A stretch of DNA of 19,209 nucleotides from the IMG/VR virus record IMGVR_UViG_3300032327_000093, positions 69,215-88,423 of that record; one strand, given 5' to 3'. The notes under the pieces were generated by a model, which was given only the letters and a program-made list of their open reading frames with translations, searched no databases and was not told the DNA's origin. Every line of letters begins with the position of its first letter. The first letter of the stretch is position 1. This DNA comes from a virus (taxonomy: Duplodnaviria > Heunggongvirae > Uroviricota > Caudoviricetes). Made by a program: the position numbers and the translations under genes. This document shows positions 4,420 to 14,212 of this stretch, one piece after another.

Positions 4420-4881
4420 ATGTCAAATTGGTACACAAGGATAACAGTCAATCTGGCTGTGATACCTGATTTTATTCAACACTTTGAAACCGAACTAGAT
4501 AATGCTAAGAAAGAGGTAAAGATATACGGCAATGTTGAAAAGAACATTGCCGCTTTACCCGGCATTACCGAACATAGATTCAATCAGTTACAAGAAGTAG
4601 AAGCGGTACTTAACTACTTGAATATTCAATTACGGAAAATTCGCCGAAAACATTTTCAAAAATATTTAGAAGCGTATAATAGAGCATTGACAAGCCGTGA
4701 CGCTGACAAGTATGTTGAGGGTGAAGATGAAGTTATTGAATATGAAATATTGATTAACGAAGTGGCATTACTTAGAAATCGTTGGCTTGGTATATTAAAG
4801 GGCCTTGAAGCTAAACAGTGGCAGATGGGGCATATCGTGCGGTTACGCACTAGTGGAATGGAAGATATTACAATTGGCTAA
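4420..4881 (+). CDS. uvsY: UvsY-like recombination mediator
   Basis: 153-aa helical protein with Y.E.Y.R.L..RD..KY.EG pattern and C-terminal ILKGLEAKQWQMG.IV.LR..G.ED, typical of UvsY; lies next to uvsX. Confidence 0.8.
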   Translation: MSNWYTRITVNLAVIPDFIQHFETELDNAKKEVKIYGNVEKNIAALPGITEHRFNQLQEVEAVLNYLNIQLRKIRRKHFQKYLEAYNRALTSRDADKYVEGEDEVIEYEILINEVALLRNRWLGILKGLEAKQWQMGHIVRLRTSGMEDITIG

Positions 4882-5725
4882 ATCAAACATAATGACAACT
4901 ATGCAAACGCAGATGAAAAATCTCGCAAAAAATAGTACCTTACCTAAAGTGCAAGTTACTACTCAACCAATCTCTTCCTCACAAAATCATCTGCATACTC
5001 TTTTAGGAATTAATAGTACTACATCTTTTGATGATTTATATAATACTGAATATGTTAAAAAATATGAAGTATTTGAGACCACAGAAGATATACTAGGATT
5101 GAGTGTTACTTGGCACAGAATGCGTCCATTAATCAATGCATCAACTAGTCCCAATATTAGACCAACTAAACTTACTGATAGTATCTTGTTCAAAGAAATA
5201 ATTCAGGAAGATAGAGATAAGGCTGAACGCATCCGTGACTATTACAGCAAGAAACTTATGGTTATAACTTTGCGTGAACAAAGGATAAGTAAATTCAGGA
5301 AAGATTTATCTACCTTCATTCATGGTGATAGTAAAGTAGTCAAAGAAGAATTGATGCCAATAATTTATCGTCTACCTGAATTCTATGATTATGATATAGA
5401 ATTTGATGATATGGTTAGAGAATTGAATACACGATTTGAATTTCCTGAAAACACAAAAGCATGGTCAGGTACAAAAACTCTAAAGCCTATCAAAAAATTT
5501 CTAGTCAAACATAGAATAAACAAATTCTCAGAATACTGGTTGAAAGATGATGACAACAAACTATGCAAGATTGAAGTTCCAATCGACAACAAACTAAATC
5601 ATCTCTGGGAACACTTTTTTGAGCAAGATTCTATTCCCCTAGTAGGGCTTTTTAAGCATATGGAACGTGACGGAATTAGCTATTTTCACCTAAAAAACTG
5701 GGAAATAGACTTTACCAAAACTTGA
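4874..5725 (+). CDS. Hypothetical protein (about 283 aa)
   Basis: In-frame TTG 4874 overlaps the uvsY stop (alternative ATG 4892). The ORF-track start at 4805 lies deep inside uvsY and is unlikely. The stop TGA lies in the -35 box of repeat 1. Confidence 0.7.
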   Translation: MAKSNIMTTMQTQMKNLAKNSTLPKVQVTTQPISSSQNHLHTLLGINSTTSFDDLYNTEYVKKYEVFETTEDILGLSVTWHRMRPLINASTSPNIRPTKLTDSILFKEIIQEDRDKAERIRDYYSKKLMVITLREQRISKFRKDLSTFIHGDSKVVKEELMPIIYRLPEFYDYDIEFDDMVRELNTRFEFPENTKAWSGTKTLKPIKKFLVKHRINKFSEYWLKDDDNKLCKIEVPIDNKLNHLWEHFFEQDSIPLVGLFKHMERDGISYFHLKNWEIDFTKT

Positions 5726-5750
5726 CATTAAATGGTTTTGGGTCTATAAT
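5722..5750 (+). promoter_or_regulatory. Repeat promoter 1 (sigma70 consensus)
   Basis: TTGACA-17-TATAAT followed by AAGGAG and ATG 5781. Confidence 0.9.
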
Positions 5751-5780
5751 AGAGGCTTAGATTGATTAAAGGAGCTAGTT

Positions 5781-6053
5781 ATGACACAAGTTTACGACCG
5801 TTTGACAGAGCAGGAAAAGCGTGAAGTTCGTATGTACGGTGTTACCGTTGCAGGTATGCGTGAAAGTATCGAATCCAGCATCACTTTCAAGTTTTCTGGT
5901 CCTGCTATGATTGCTGCTAGTTTGATGAGTGATGCACAGGAAATGATTAATACCGAGTACGGTGAAGTTGACTATATGCGGGCCGAAGATGCCCGTCAAT
6001 GTCTGAATCGTGCTAAGTGGGTCCTGTTTGAATATGTTATGAAAAAGGATTGA
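5781..6053 (+). CDS. Cassette hypothetical protein (90 aa)
   Basis: Own promoter and RBS; the stop lies inside repeat 2. Confidence 0.8.
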   Translation: MTQVYDRLTEQEKREVRMYGVTVAGMRESIESSITFKFSGPAMIAASLMSDAQEMINTEYGEVDYMRAEDARQCLNRAKWVLFEYVMKKD

Positions 6054-6078
6054 CAACAAATGGTTTCGGGTCTATAAT
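6050..6078 (+). promoter_or_regulatory. Repeat promoter 2
   Basis: TTGACA-ACAAATGGTTTCGGGTC-TATAAT, then CAGGAG and ATG 6112. Confidence 0.9.
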
Positions 6079-6111
6079 GTAATCTTAGACAGTTAAGCAC
6101 AGGAGAACATC

Positions 6112-6447
6112 ATGGATGTACATAAATTGACTAAGACTGAACTATGGGACCTAATTGACAGTTTCGGCCCACAAAATAAAGTTGTGGTTGGAAGTGATAC
6201 TGTGAATATCACCAATCAATATCACAATGTAACATATCCCATACGAACGGAACAGGACCTGTCTCAATTAGATAGGATTGTGGAACTTGATAGTAGCATT
6301 TACCGCAGAAAATACAATCTGGTATTCTGTTATAACGAAGGCCAGCGTGAGCATTTTTTCATCGAGCCTGCGGGACTGAAAAATCACAAAACAAAGTTGG
6401 AAAAATTGCTATACAAAATGTTGGAAAAATTGCTATACAAAAATTGA
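6112..6447 (+). CDS. Cassette hypothetical protein (111 aa) with a duplicated C-terminal octapeptide
   Basis: RBS CAGGAG; ends LEKLLYKM-LEKLLYKN; the stop lies inside repeat 3. Confidence 0.75.
   Translation: MDVHKLTKTELWDLIDSFGPQNKVVVGSDTVNITNQYHNVTYPIRTEQDLSQLDRIVELDSSIYRRKYNLVFCYNEGQREHFFIEPAGLKNHKTKLEKLLYKMLEKLLYKN
6396..6442 (+). repeat. 24-bp-period tandem duplication
   Basis: GTTGGAAAAATTGCTATACAAAA is identical at 6396-6418 and 6420-6442. Confidence 0.9.
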
Positions 6448-6472
6448 CATTAAATGGTTTTGGGTATATAAT
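6444..6472 (+). promoter_or_regulatory. Repeat promoter 3
   Basis: TTGACA-17-TATAAT; 48 nt identical to repeat 4. Confidence 0.9.
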
Positions 6473-6502
6473 CTAGTCTTAGATTGATTAAAGGAGCACA
6501 AA

Positions 6503-6889
6503 ATGGGATACAGTGATTGGCAAGCATCGGCAAAGATAGAGGACATGGTTGGCAAGGTGTTCACTTCGGTAACACAAGATTGTGATGTGATGGTGTTCGA
6601 GAACGCAACCGAACGCTTTGTGTTCTTCCACTACCAAGACTGTTGCGAAAGTGTGTCCATCGAGGACATCTGCGGTGACCTGCAGGACTTGGTGGGAGAA
6701 CCTTTGTTGATCGCTGAGGAAGTTTCAGGTGAGACTCCTGTAGATTTCAACGAAATGGACCATGAGAGTGTGACTTGGACCTTCTACAAGTTCGCTACCC
6801 GCAAGGGCTATGTGGATGTTCGTTGGTTGGGCGAGTCTAACGGCTACTACTCAGAAGGTGTAAGCCTGGGTCGTGAGTTGGTTGCTTGA
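6503..6889 (+). CDS. Widespread phage hypothetical family (H.QDCCE.V.IEDI.GDL ... TWTFYK ... G.SNGYYSE motifs)
   Basis: The motif pattern is recognisable as a common phage DUF (from memory DUF7448-like, not searched); RBS AAGGAG. Confidence 0.75.
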   Translation: MGYSDWQASAKIEDMVGKVFTSVTQDCDVMVFENATERFVFFHYQDCCESVSIEDICGDLQDLVGEPLLIAEEVSGETPVDFNEMDHESVTWTFYKFATRKGYVDVRWLGESNGYYSEGVSLGRELVA

Positions 6890-6914
6890 CATTAAATGGT
6901 TTTGGGTATATAAT
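6886..6914 (+). promoter_or_regulatory. Repeat promoter 4
   Basis: TTGACA-17-TATAAT, then CGGAG and ATG 6944. Confidence 0.9.
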
Positions 6915-6943
6915 CTAGTCTTAGATTGATTAACGGAGCAAAT

Positions 6944-7318
6944 ATGTCTGAATTCACTACTTGGGAACAAATGTCTAAACTGGAACAGGCGCAAGCCATC
7001 TTCTGGGATATGTACAAGGATGCCTACGGTGTTCGCCCGCGCGGTATGGATACATCCGCTTGGGACGAGGCTACCTTTGAAGCCGAGTTAAACTACCTGC
7101 AGGACTTGATTGCCAAGAACGAGCAAGAGCGCAAGATCGCCGAACACGAGGCTGCACATGCCTTTGAAATGCGAGTGCAGAGCATCATAGACTGCGGTGC
7201 TCATAATCGTGCTATGGCCCTGCGTTGGATTCACGAGGCAGAAGGTTCTAATGGTGATGACGAGTATCTTTGCTACTTGGTTGGATTGCCCTATGCTTAT
7301 TTCAAGAAGGTTGCATAA
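6944..7318 (+). CDS. Conserved T4-like phage hypothetical protein (D.YKDAYGVRPR motif)
   Basis: ATG 6944 sits behind the GGAG RBS; the ORF-track TTG 6926 lies inside the repeat leader. Confidence 0.8.
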   Translation: MSEFTTWEQMSKLEQAQAIFWDMYKDAYGVRPRGMDTSAWDEATFEAELNYLQDLIAKNEQERKIAEHEAAHAFEMRVQSIIDCGAHNRAMALRWIHEAEGSNGDDEYLCYLVGLPYAYFKKVA

Positions 7319-7599
7319 TGAACACATATAATATACACGATGATCCAGCTGCATTTTATGACGAGAAGTACATCGGCAAGGTGCTGATGCTGCACCCGGC
7401 CGAGTGTGTGTTTGAACTAGACGCACCTCGGAAGATTATGCAACGGTTGTCGGTTAGACCTATAACGGAGTGGCACATGGCCGAGCATGGTGATGAATTC
7501 AGAGAATGCTGGCATCAGAGCGAAATGTATTGTCCGCATGAAGGCATTGATAGACTGGCCGAGTGTGGTGTAAAAAGTTTAGATTGGGAATTAGCATAA
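7318..7599 (+). CDS. Hypothetical protein (93 aa)
   Basis: TAATG overlap with the upstream gene; in frame with the track ORF 7270-7599. Confidence 0.65.
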   Translation: MNTYNIHDDPAAFYDEKYIGKVLMLHPAECVFELDAPRKIMQRLSVRPITEWHMAEHGDEFRECWHQSEMYCPHEGIDRLAECGVKSLDWELA

Positions 7600-7730
7600 T
7601 GTATAGAGTTGGCGATTTGATTTTTCGTACGCTGGAAGCACTTTGCATCTATGTCGCAGAACATAGGGGTGAAGATTTTACAATTGAATGGATTACTGAG
7701 TATACACTCGGTGACCCGATGGAGCAATAA
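7599..7730 (+). CDS. Small hypothetical protein, 43 aa, below the ORF-track cut-off (MYRVGDLIFRTLEALCIYVAEHRGEDFTIEWITEYTLGDPMEQ)
   Basis: TAATG overlap at 7597-7601; exactly fills the gap to the next start; its 3' end supplies the GGAG RBS for ATG 7732. Confidence 0.6.
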   Translation: MYRVGDLIFRTLEALCIYVAEHRGEDFTIEWITEYTLGDPMEQ

Positions 7731-7731
7731 A

Positions 7732-7950
7732 ATGGTACGTAGTTTTAATTTTGATGTGGTACAGCGTGAAACCGCTGACGGTCACACACGGATAACTGAA
7801 GGCGCTTATTGGTACAACGAAGCACAAAAAATGGCTCGGAAGGGTACTGCTAAGTTGGTAATGAACAATAAGAGTTTTGCTGGTTACGGTGGATCCACTG
7901 ACGTTGGTTATACACGGTATAATTATACTGTGACTGAGGTCCTTGGTTGA
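7732..7950 (+). CDS. Hypothetical protein (72 aa)
   Basis: GGAG at 7721-7724 then ATG 7732; the stop lies inside repeat 5. Confidence 0.7.
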   Translation: MVRSFNFDVVQRETADGHTRITEGAYWYNEAQKMARKGTAKLVMNNKSFAGYGGSTDVGYTRYNYTVTEVLG

Positions 7951-7975
7951 CATTAAATGGTTTTGGGTATATAAT
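7947..7975 (+). promoter_or_regulatory. Repeat promoter 5
   Basis: TTGACA-17-TATAAT; 44 nt identical to repeat 7. Confidence 0.9.
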
Positions 7976-8008
7976 AGAGTCTTATTCAGTTAATTAAAGG
8001 ACTAGAAA

Positions 8009-8275
8009 ATGGCTAAAAAAATCTCTATCAAAGTTTTCGCAGACCCAGGTCATGCATGGGCCCGCTTCCCCAAAGCAAAGTTGGTGGCGCTTGGTATCGC
8101 CGATAAGATTAGTCCTTACAGCTACCAGAACGGCACCAATGCTTTCTTGGAAGAAGACTGCGACCTGTCATTACTGGTTCGTGCTCTCATTGAGCGTGGC
8201 TATGAGATTAAATTCAACGAAAGCCATGCTAATAAGCAAAGCAAAATCCGCAATTATTCTACATATCGGGCTTAA
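8009..8275 (+). CDS. Small phage/mobile-element protein with D-P-G-H-x-W and Y-LEED-C-D-type motifs
   Basis: RBS AAGGA; ADPGHAW and FLEEDCD motifs of a common uncharacterised family. Confidence 0.8.
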   Translation: MAKKISIKVFADPGHAWARFPKAKLVALGIADKISPYSYQNGTNAFLEEDCDLSLLVRALIERGYEIKFNESHANKQSKIRNYSTYRA

Positions 8276-8278
8276 TAT

Positions 8279-8467
8279 ATGAAAATGCGTAAACACAAGG
8301 TAAACAAAGTCCGATGCAGCCGTCAAGCCTGGGTGGATAATGGTGCATGGTCCTACTATAACCGCCGCTTCGAACTGAGCATCCTTAAGGTTCGGGCCGA
8401 GCGTGAAGCCTATATGAATGCCTGGCGTGAGTCTCAAATTCCAACTGAAGTTGTTCTACCGGCTTGA
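8279..8467 (+). CDS. Small basic hypothetical protein (62 aa)
   Basis: Fills the gap and its stop falls inside repeat 6 like the other cassettes; RBS is weak. Confidence 0.6.
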   Translation: MKMRKHKVNKVRCSRQAWVDNGAWSYYNRRFELSILKVRAEREAYMNAWRESQIPTEVVLPA

Positions 8468-8492
8468 CATTAAATGGATTTGGGTATATAAT
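8464..8492 (+). promoter_or_regulatory. Repeat promoter 6
   Basis: TTGACA-TTAAATGGATTTGGGTA-TATAAT. Confidence 0.9.
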
Positions 8493-8526
8493 ACATACTT
8501 AGACAGTTAATTAAAGGACTTAGAAA

Positions 8527-8721
8527 ATGACAAATTTTGCAATGTTTACTGACGCTGGTAATGATGCAGTTGGATCCATCGTAAAGTTGGCAATCAGTCA
8601 AAACTTGAGTTGGTCTGTTGTTCGAGGATTGCTCAAGGCCTTGGCTCAGGACGAGCGTTTTGAGGAAGCTACTGACACCTCTGTGCAGGAAGCAGTATAC
8701 AAGGCTTGCGATTTTAGTTGA
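8527..8721 (+). CDS. Cassette hypothetical protein (64 aa)
   Basis: RBS AAGGA; the stop lies inside repeat 7. Confidence 0.75.
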   Translation: MTNFAMFTDAGNDAVGSIVKLAISQNLSWSVVRGLLKALAQDERFEEATDTSVQEAVYKACDFS

Positions 8722-8746
8722 CATTAAATGGTTTTGGGTATATAAT
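8718..8746 (+). promoter_or_regulatory. Repeat promoter 7
   Basis: TTGACA-17-TATAAT, then CAGGAG and ATG 8780. Confidence 0.9.
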
Positions 8747-8779
8747 AGAGTCTTATTCAGTCAACAACAGGAGTTTCAG

Positions 8780-8998
8780 ATGGGCTACAAAGTTATCGCA
8801 GACAAACATCAGATGGATGAAATGCGTACCAAGTATGGTCCTCGCAAAGGTCTAGAAGGTCCTTTCAACTTCACTGGCCGTGTGTTGTATTACGACACCG
8901 AAGAAGGTCAGTACTATGACCCCACTACCGACTTCTATGTTGAGCAGGCTGATATGGATATCATCCATCAGCGTATCGTGGATATTCTGAAGGCTTGA
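8780..8998 (+). CDS. Cassette hypothetical protein (72 aa; YGPRKGLEGPF ... YYDP.TDFY)
   Basis: ATG 8780 sits behind CAGGAG; the track start at 8618 runs through the upstream gene and promoter. Confidence 0.8.
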   Translation: MGYKVIADKHQMDEMRTKYGPRKGLEGPFNFTGRVLYYDTEEGQYYDPTTDFYVEQADMDIIHQRIVDILKA

Positions 8999-9023
8999 CA
9001 ATAAATGGGTAATAGTATATAAT
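8995..9023 (+). promoter_or_regulatory. Repeat promoter 8 (most diverged spacer)
   Basis: TTGACA-ATAAATGGGTAATAGTA-TATAAT, then CAGGAG and ATG 9058. Confidence 0.85.
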
Positions 9024-9057
9024 ACTATCTTGTTCAGTTAATTACAGGAGTTTTTCT

Positions 9058-10089
9058 ATGTCAACTATTCGCATTCTCTCTGGTTCTTATCGTAACAACC
9101 CTGTTGCTGGTGATGTGTTCACACTAGTCAAAGGTTATCAGGTTGGTAAGAAGGGCGGATTCGTTACTGTTAAAAATGACGGACAGTTTGCATCGGGTGG
9201 ACCTCAGGTCCGTGTCAATGTTAATAGCATTGAAGATATTCAATTCATGAATGGAGAAGCAGTAGTGGGTAATGCAGTAGAATTCAAAGCAAAAGCAGAG
9301 GTTCTCAAAGAATCTGATCAGGAAGCAATGGACCGTATCGCAGGTCGTTTTGCTGTATTGGATGAAATGTCAAAAGCATGTATCAGTGGTGACATTCGTG
9401 CTATGATTGTCACAGGCCCTCCTGGTGTCGGTAAGTCATTTGGTGTTACTCAGCAAATGGAAAAAGCTAGCATGTTCGATAAGATTGCTGGCAAGAAGGT
9501 CCGTTTCAATACTGTCAAAGGTGCAATGAGTGCTATTGGTTTGTTTGTACTATTGTACAAATACTCTGATGCTAAAAACGTATTGGTGTTTGATGACTGC
9601 GATATCTGGGATGATCAAGATGCAGTCAACATTCTGAAAGGTGCATTGGATAGTAGCAAGACACGGCGTATCTCTTACAACAAAGATTCACGTATTCTGC
9701 GTGAAGAGGGAGTGCCCAATTCTTTCAACTTCAATGGCTCTATCATCTTTATCACAAACAAATCGTTTGATGCTAAAAAAGCAAACAAAATGCAACCTCA
9801 CTTGGATGCATTGCAAAGTCGTTGTCACTTTCTGGATTTGACTATCAATACTGAGCGTGACAAAATGATGCGTATCAAGCAGGTCTATCGTGATGCTGAC
9901 CCTGGCTTGTTTGTTGACTATTCTTTTAGTAAAGAACAAGAAGAAGGCATCATGGAATACATGTGGTCTAACTGCAATCAATTGCGTGAGATCAGTTTGC
10001 GTATGGTGTTGAAGATTGCTGACTTGGTTAAAATCAGTCCCAATAACTGGACAGAACTTGCGAAAGCAACTTGCATGAAGAATCTCTGA
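9058..10089 (+). CDS. AAA+ ATPase with an N-terminal beta-rich domain
   Basis: Walker A GPPGVGKS, Walker B VLVFDDCD, sensor-1 IIFITN, arginine finger ALQSRC. Confidence 0.85.
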   Translation: MSTIRILSGSYRNNPVAGDVFTLVKGYQVGKKGGFVTVKNDGQFASGGPQVRVNVNSIEDIQFMNGEAVVGNAVEFKAKAEVLKESDQEAMDRIAGRFAVLDEMSKACISGDIRAMIVTGPPGVGKSFGVTQQMEKASMFDKIAGKKVRFNTVKGAMSAIGLFVLLYKYSDAKNVLVFDDCDIWDDQDAVNILKGALDSSKTRRISYNKDSRILREEGVPNSFNFNGSIIFITNKSFDAKKANKMQPHLDALQSRCHFLDLTINTERDKMMRIKQVYRDADPGLFVDYSFSKEQEEGIMEYMWSNCNQLREISLRMVLKIADLVKISPNNWTELAKATCMKNL

Positions 10090-10119: not shown

Positions 10120-10145
10120 AGGGGAACTTAGGTTCCCCTTTTTTT
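10120..10145 (+). terminator. Rho-independent terminator closing the cassette array
   Basis: AGGGGAAC-TTAG-GTTCCCCT followed by a T run. A small AGTCT-GCAA-AGACT GNRA hairpin lies at 10103-10116. Confidence 0.88.
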
Positions 10146-14183: not shown

Positions 14184-14212
14184 TTGACATTAATCTATTT
14201 TGATGATATAAT
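14184..14212 (+). promoter_or_regulatory. Consensus sigma70 promoter downstream of the endonuclease
   Basis: TTGACA-17-TATAAT with extended TG; the first 10 nt (TTGACATTAA) match the array repeat. Confidence 0.85.

Follow-up and report, generated by a model that had tools for sequence, protein, structure and literature searches.

In-frame stop codons within the -35 boxes of a predicted promoter module in a variable gene array of an uncultured jumbo phage

The window analysed here, i.e. the whole stretch of 19,209 nt at positions 69,215 to 88,423 of the IMG/VR virus record IMGVR_UViG_3300032327_000093 (one strand, 5' to 3'), contains an array of small genes separated by eight copies of a predicted promoter module, and in all eight the preceding open reading frame (ORF) is closed in frame by the TGA that forms positions 2-4 of the -35 box TTGACA. 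The copies lie on the + strand and carry perfect TTGACA-N17-TATAAT motifs (12/12 consensus) at 5722, 6050, 6444, 6886, 7947, 8464, 8718, and 8995. The overlapping stops end at 5725, 6053, 6447, 6889, 7950, 8467, 8721, and 8998, exactly where an earlier reading of this DNA made without database searches (the sequence-only reading) had placed them, and the ORFs that they close encode 277, 90, 111, 128, 72-99, 62, 64, and 72 aa. The overlap is real and statistically solid, and the array is a compact, stem-loop-free variant of the promoter cassettes known as PeSL (promoter-early stem-loop). We give a probability of about two in three to the explanation that the overlap is an end state of genome compaction, and that the cassettes are shuffled by homologous recombination in the hyperplastic region of an uncultured, T4-superfamily-like jumbo phage.

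Each module comprises a 29-nt promoter, a leader of 29-34 nt after the -10 box, a ribosome-binding site (RBS) of the GGAG or GGAC type, and the ATG of the next gene. The copies are 77-100% identical over 30 nt, with likeness reaching up to 85 nt, through the leader. At the eight junctions the module itself is the sole non-coding DNA, which agrees with the sequence-only reading that no intergenic DNA exists besides the repeat. That reading does not extend to a module for every gene, however, as one copy serves the four genes g4 to g7 and another serves g8 and g9 (the genes are numbered g0 to g12 from left to right, g0 and g12 being the conserved flanks). Junctions inside these shared units are TAATG overlaps or gaps of 1-3 nt, and promoter-less junctions in the window are generally TAATG or ATGA overlaps. 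In seven of the eight copies a second in-frame stop follows two codons past the TGA (TGA-CAW-TAA), whereas copy 2 lacks it. The eight modules fold no better than shuffled sequences (z from -1.9 to +1.9), no Rfam-type RNA families were found in the window, and no terminator-like site was found in the modules or intergenic DNA of 5722-9057, where the sole scanned match (6799-6815) lies inside g3. The only non-coding terminator-like site on the + strand between 4400 and 10300 is an 8-bp G+C-rich hairpin followed by a T-run right after g12 (10120..10145), and it is likely the shared 3' end of nested transcripts from all eight promoters. Given this single non-coding terminator, the eight promoters would yield co-terminal transcripts, with g12 receiving their summed transcription.

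The stop overlap extends well beyond the window. Searching IMG/VR with the 29-nt core, three positions left free, we find it in at least 119 stretches, often several times per stretch. Among 163 non-redundant promoter contexts, scored by the stop of the nearest upstream ORF of at least 40 aa, that stop is the -35 TGA in 88 (54%). In another 37 it starts 4-8 nt before the box and is usually a TAA, reading TAA-A(0-3)-GG-TTGACA, while no stop starts on the first base of the box or in the three bases before it (0/163). The upstream ORF enters the repeat in another frame in seven contexts, and 31 have a longer spacer (9-148 nt) or, in two cases, no ORF end within 400 nt. When stops up to 8 nt from the box or inside the repeat are counted by frame, the ratio is ~102 : 17 : 13, with the TGA frame ahead. 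Adding 75 syntenic loci, with our own ORF calls clustered into families, gives 523 junctions, or 306 once those that agree in upstream family, offset, and downstream family are counted as one. In this enlarged set, TGA-type junctions occur in 69 of the 147 upstream families and are the exclusive type in 47. A chance or annotation artefact was considered and rejected: the window holds nine TTGACA-N17-TATAAT matches (a ninth, diverged copy starts at 14184) against 0.01 expected from 200 shuffles, and the pattern recurs in 69 independent gene families.

The frequency of the overlap differs among promoter sets. Phage RB49, the type phage of PeSL, has 20 perfect promoters with non-conserved spacers, and the upstream stop falls at the TGA in 2 of 17, compared with the 54% of the window clade. 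The corresponding figure in Pectobacterium phage CBB is 1 of 9, while Vibrio phage 2.275.O and Sinorhizobium phage Phosso, both among the nearest isolates by UvsX, have no perfect TTGACA-N17-TATAAT site. On the contig itself, by contrast, the promoter copies outside the array, including the ninth copy of the window, show 0-1 clear overlaps in six. The proposal that every -35 box supplies a stop describes the array (8/8) and does not extend to the other copies of the same contig.

All features of the array lie on the + strand, and every gene that directly precedes a module ends at the TGA of that module. The left flank gene g0 (4892..5725; 277 aa, with an alternative TTG start at 4805) has no match in Pfam or PHROG. 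Module 1 (5722..5780) has its -35 box at 5722-5727, its -10 box at 5745-5750, and AAAGGAG in its leader, and leads to the ATG of g1 at 5781 (5781..6053; an ORFan cassette of 90 aa). Module 2 (6050..6111), the copy without the second stop, has the spacer variant ACAAATGGTTTCGGGTC and precedes g2 (6112..6447), a rare ORFan of 111 aa in a family of two. The 3' end of g2 holds a 24-bp tandem duplication (23/24 identical; 6393-6440) directly before module 3, with the peptide LEKLLYK repeated, and the g2 homologue in the related locus L059 has a single copy of the 24-bp stretch. Module 3 (6444..6502) matches module 4 (6886..6943) over ~55 nt with one mismatch, and between them lies g3 (6503..6889; 128 aa, DUF7448/phrog_2650). 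The four-gene unit behind module 4 (6944..7950) consists of g4 (6944-7318; phrog_21968), g5 (7318-7599), g6 (7599-7730), and g7 (7732-7950), joined by TAATG overlaps or a 1-nt gap. Module 5 (7947..8008) serves the pair at 8009..8467, i.e. g8 (8009-8275), which ends at a TAA of its own, and g9 (8279-8467). Module 6 (8464..8526) precedes g10 (8527..8721), an ORFan of 64 aa, module 7 (8718..8779) precedes g11 (8780..8998; 72 aa, phrog_13298), and module 8 (8995..9057), with the spacer variant ATAAATGGGTAATAGTA, precedes the right flank gene g12 (9058..10089; 343 aa, phrog_1250), which has a weak clamp-loader-like AAA similarity.

The cassette proteins are ORFans or have matches of unknown function only (DUF7448 and three PHROGs of unknown function). 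No similarity is detectable among the 13 array and flank proteins (best E-value 0.04), and these fall into separate families. The G+C content is 0.43-0.50 in 9 of the 11 cassette genes, the exceptions being g2 (0.37) and g6 (0.41), compared with a contig mean of 0.39 and a value of 0.33 for g0. The raised G+C of the cassettes suggests another origin or another constraint.

Comparison with related loci reveals that the cassettes vary while the flanks stay. The flank genes g0 and g12 are conserved in 42-89 loci (the g0 family has 57 homologues), and in the 42 loci that hold both, the interval between them ranges from 300 bp, with a single cassette, to 4153 bp, and differs in content and order. 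For example, one locus (L157) has the order g0-f187-P-g11-P-g1-P-f17-P-g12, where P is the promoter and f187 and f17 are other gene families, while in the window g1 comes long before g11. The most mobile cassette is g11, with 12 different downstream neighbours among relatives, and the families of g1, g5, g8, and g10 are also found in other promoter arrays with unrelated flank genes. Homology blocks between the window and five related loci (L059, L123, L162, L038, and L026) begin and end at module coordinates. In the closest relative, L059 (g12 99% identical), block ends fall at 6050, 6498, 6886, 7730, 7947, 8273, and 8461. There, g3 is absent through an indel that begins and ends inside the ~55-nt stretch common to modules 3 and 4, g7 is replaced by a cassette of a promoter plus family f33, and g9 is missing, as it is in five other contexts; without g9, g8 ends at the module TGA and its C-terminus is still YRA. 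These alignments bear out the sequence-only reading that the repeats are promoter-leader-RBS modules of a hyperplastic region in which cassette content and order change with breakpoints in or at the repeat. Separately, a weak alignment connects the g8-g9 junction GGGCTTAATATATGAAAATGCGTAAAC (8262-8300) with the beginning of a module GGCTTGACATTAAATGGATTTGGGTATAT (8455-8490), and g8 and g9 both end in GGCTT plus a stop. This junction could be a decayed module or microhomology used in the g9 indel.

A mutual-information scan of 334 de-replicated junctions locates the exchange zone more closely. Sequence 5' of the -35 box varies with the upstream gene family (z 8-17) and the leader with the downstream family (z mostly 5-14), whose link is the stronger one at each variable position of the leader. 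Neither family has more than a weak link to the 29-nt core. Since the linkage switches inside the core, crossovers fall mainly in these 29 nt, which again fits the breakpoints foreseen for relatives. Within the core, the 17-nt spacer is itself conserved, with an entropy below 0.8 bit at most positions (5728-5744 in the window and the equivalents in the 334 junctions, loci L001-L192).

The type of junction follows the upstream gene regardless of which gene lies downstream. For example, g8 always ends at the TGA whichever of its six downstream neighbours follows, 8 of the 11 distinct contexts of the g1 family, each defined by offset and downstream gene, have their stop at the -35 TGA, and family f64, also with six neighbours, always has its stop 7 nt upstream. 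Among the 45 families with both types of junction, TGA-type proteins end within 3 aa of homologues with their own stop in 35, and these junctions are therefore native C-termini rather than truncation points. The module reaches ~7 nt 5' of the -35 box, where coding and non-coding copies alike follow the consensus M-M-A-A-A-G/A-G/C at positions -7 to -1. As a result, TGA-ending proteins tend toward a Lys-(Gly/Ala/Ile/Thr) tail: Lys is next to last in 49 of 141, and the final position is taken by Gly in 43, Ala in 39, Ile in 21, and Thr in 13. The module thus encodes the last one or two residues and the stop; the sequence-only reading had already called it a supplier of stops. A TAA-type junction is simply a T placed in the A-tract of the module, and the transition can be seen in family f72, where a change of TAA to AAA lengthens the ORF by two codons to the TGA; likewise, one extra A in an A-run pushes the g2 homologue of L059 into the repeat.

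At g0, the TGA junction is kept while the protein tail diverges (TKT, DRG, VKS, EKA, MA, and others). When the g12 tree is rooted at its midpoint, this junction occurs in both halves, with ~6 changes compared with 12.7 for shuffled labels. The g0 TGA junction is thus old and heritable. In one subclade (L026, L116, L132, L135, and L136), g0 has its own TAA four residues earlier, followed by a G+C-rich hairpin with a T-run and by the promoter 52-67 nt on, a 3' end that matches the classical terminator-plus-promoter layout of PeSL cassettes. In four other loci (L147, L157, L159, and L168), the g0 stop is found at the TGA of TTGACA although the promoter downstream is partly deleted or diverged (e.g. 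a -10 box reading TATACT), so that the stop outlives the promoter.

In the explanation proposed here, each module joins an A-rich flank of ~7 nt to a predicted promoter of the sigma-70 type, whose 17-nt spacer is conserved, and to a leader of 30 nt that carries the RBS. The modules would most likely fire early through the host RNA polymerase and give nested transcripts ending past g12. The 29-nt core hardly differs from copy to copy, and crossovers by general homologous recombination would therefore fall inside it, either through the phage UvsX pathway during co-infection or between copies within one genome; they would delete, insert, swap, or reorder units made of a leader, one or more ORFs, and the next flank. 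This would be shuffling of the PeSL type without the stem-loop. The hyperplastic region occupies a fixed site between the recombination genes (gp32, uvsX, uvsY, and g0) on one side and g12 and the helicase on the other. The stop within the -35 box would then be the end state of genome compaction, i.e. the tightest layout that spares both the gene and the promoter. TTGACA holds a TGA, and in translation the flank AAA-G(G/C)T-TGA can give Lys-Gly/Ala-stop, so that an upstream ORF deprived, in this frame, of its stop or spacer would end there and leave the promoter unharmed. Any further shortening would destroy the promoter, and the overlap would therefore be a stable state, inherited with the upstream gene, which makes compaction a likely ratchet. 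The stop/-35 overlap would be the counterpart, at promoter junctions, of the ATGA and TAATG overlaps between genes.

Several observations weigh against this explanation. Compaction alone gives no obvious reason for the bias toward the TGA frame (~102 vs 17 and 13), nor does it explain why the overlap is universal in the array and found in 0-1 of 6 copies elsewhere on the contig. Sigma-70 promoters do not need a conserved spacer sequence, and conservation of the spacer far in excess of that need is not accounted for by compaction alone; it could point to another function, for example at a recombination site or in the binding of a factor. For related contigs, our own ORF calls are simple and some are in the wrong frame, and homopolymer errors are possible in metagenome contigs.

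The sequence-only reading favoured a different origin of the overlap, namely that the module was selected as a universal part supplying stop, promoter, and RBS, and that it forms an integrase-free, integron-like system for capturing any in-frame ORF or ORF fragment. As an adaptor, AAA-G(G/C)T-TGA-CAW-TAA with its promoter, leader, and RBS would close any joined frame and restart expression, making the in-frame stop an adaptation to capture and not a by-product of compaction. Several observations speak for this: the module supplies the last codons and a stop, usually with a back-up TAA, the TGA frame is strongly over-represented, and the cassettes are mobile within and between arrays and consist of unrelated ORFans with a G+C of 0.43-0.50 in 9 of 11, against 0.39 for the contig. 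We nevertheless consider it unlikely. Capture of fragments is disfavoured by the native C-termini of TGA-type proteins in 35 of the 45 mixed families, by a junction type that is stable for each upstream gene and does not track the individual event, and by g0, a gene that is not a cassette and keeps the same junction through deep divergence. In addition, about half of the junctions use other stops or spacers with equally conserved promoters, the module promptly closes only one of the three frames, and homologous exchange between repeats relocates existing junctions without making new ones. The adjacent UvsX, UvsY, and UvsW had been suggested as plausible drivers of capture, but the adjacency of uvsX and uvsY is conserved core synteny and does not attest a dedicated link.

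The position of the stop may instead be selected for itself, termination at the -35 box (UGA-C, usually with a UAA backup) being functional, for example by keeping ribosomes off the next leader and RBS or by setting the level of coupling or read-through. The TGA-CAW-TAA of seven window copies points in this direction, as do the bases at module positions 7 (T in 313/334), 8 (A in 321/334), and 9 (an invariant A), and the array has no internal terminators, so that read-through transcripts must exist if the promoters work. Yet the spacer, its TAA included, is no less conserved where the ORF has ended upstream, and this conservation is therefore not tied to termination. The stop also lies 55-60 nt before the next start, which is too distant for coupling, and the modules have no structure or Rfam match. 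We regard a selected termination signal as somewhat more doubtful even than capture. Least probable is tandem duplication and divergence of one gene-plus-promoter unit, from which all copies would have inherited the junction. The modules are indeed all co-oriented and very similar, but the 13 proteins lack detectable similarity and the same families recur in other orders and in other arrays; duplication with divergence was rejected on the ground that the cassette proteins are mutually unrelated.

PeSL cassettes have been described in the T4-type phage pairs RB49/phi1, nt-1/KVP40, and PST/T4 (Arbiol et al. 2010, PMC2839356; Comeau et al. 2014, PMC4122927), and recombination between repeated early promoters was published in 2010 as PeSL shuffling (PMC2839356). 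PeSL and the window modules alike contain a repeated early promoter close to the sigma-70 consensus (TTGACA-N17-TATAAT in RB49) together with an RBS, activity being predicted in the case of the window. In both, small ORFans of hyperplastic regions between core modules are flanked by the repeats, which also bound the indels and replacements seen among relatives, and the exchange is attributed to general homologous recombination for which short homology suffices. The PeSL repeat has a stem-loop, whereas none of the eight window modules has a stem-loop or terminator; the spacers of RB49 vary, whereas the 17-nt spacer of the window clade is conserved; and in PeSL the gene upstream ends in AT-rich DNA that precedes the -35 box (PMC2839356, Fig. 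2 legend). The hosts of the repeats differ too, i.e. T4-type phages for PeSL and uncultured jumbo phages for the window clade. The window array thus works like PeSL without being PeSL in the strict sense, as it has three of the defining features and lacks the stem-loop. In the searchable literature we found nothing beyond the PeSL papers on a systematic stop in the -35 box or on jumbo-phage hyperplastic regions.

Integrons resemble the array in their co-oriented small genes, in a repeat near or overlapping the end of the cassette ORF, and in content that varies between relatives. However, integrons have the IntI integrase, and a search of the 88-kb record, which is ~25% complete, gave no match to a tyrosine or serine recombinase, integrase, or resolvase (PF00589, PF00239). 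The array accordingly looks integrase-free within this fragment, as the sequence-only reading had it. The attC site of integrons folds as an imperfect inverted repeat of a single strand, whereas the window modules have no significant fold and exchange in the clade maps to a zone of plain homology, and integron cassettes are promoter-less under a common Pc promoter, whereas each window unit starts with its own. On these grounds the integron-like label does not hold. Phage CBB, a cultured distant relative, also has repeated TTGACA-N17-TATAAT motifs with a conserved spacer and flank before small genes. Its repeat has another spacer sequence, and in the repeated family the upstream stops keep a distance of 17-20 nt from the -35 box and do not overlap it. 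In compact phage operons, overlaps of the ATGA or TAATG type share nucleotides and leave no spacer, as the window junctions do, but they pair a stop with a start codon, while the window junctions pair a stop with a promoter hexamer.

These findings add an abundant clade of uncultured jumbo phages to the T4-like phages (~170-250 kb) in which promoters mediate modular shuffling, and show a regulatory repeat that overlaps coding sequence and sets, for about half of the preceding genes, the final residues and the stop. The hundreds of junctions in 147 gene families form a data set for the co-evolution of promoters and gene ends under compaction, and the same data can be used to ask whether the turnover of accessory genes in large phages needs dedicated machinery. 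The 29-nt motif is also a specific marker for the clade and its variable regions, the likely seat of host-interaction genes. If the capture reading were true, these jumbo phages would use their promoter arrays to capture and try out new genes, with no recombinase involved.

The record to which the window belongs is 88,423 bp long with a G+C content of 38.7%, and the window is its final 19 kb; its completeness of ~25% is the CheckV estimate. A search for near-identical DNA among cultured phages found none, and there is therefore no close isolate. The contig UvsX is 60-68% identical to those of jumbo myoviruses of 340-490 kb (Phosso, Atu_ph07, XbC2, CBB, and GAP32), and metagenomic contigs related to the window reach 303-364 kb. 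On this sequence evidence, the contig is a fragment of an uncultured jumbo phage. Genes for a gp32-like ssDNA-binding protein, UvsX, and UvsY lie 5' of the array, and g12 is followed by a helicase on its 3' side. The ninth, diverged promoter copy (14184..14212, +) stands behind a homing-endonuclease-like gene, and the upstream stop is found 5 nt before its TTGACA, without overlap. Outside the window, positions 43820-45270 of contig G000 hold a second, small cluster of three modules with stops 5' of the -35 box, one of them preceded by a short G+C inverted repeat.

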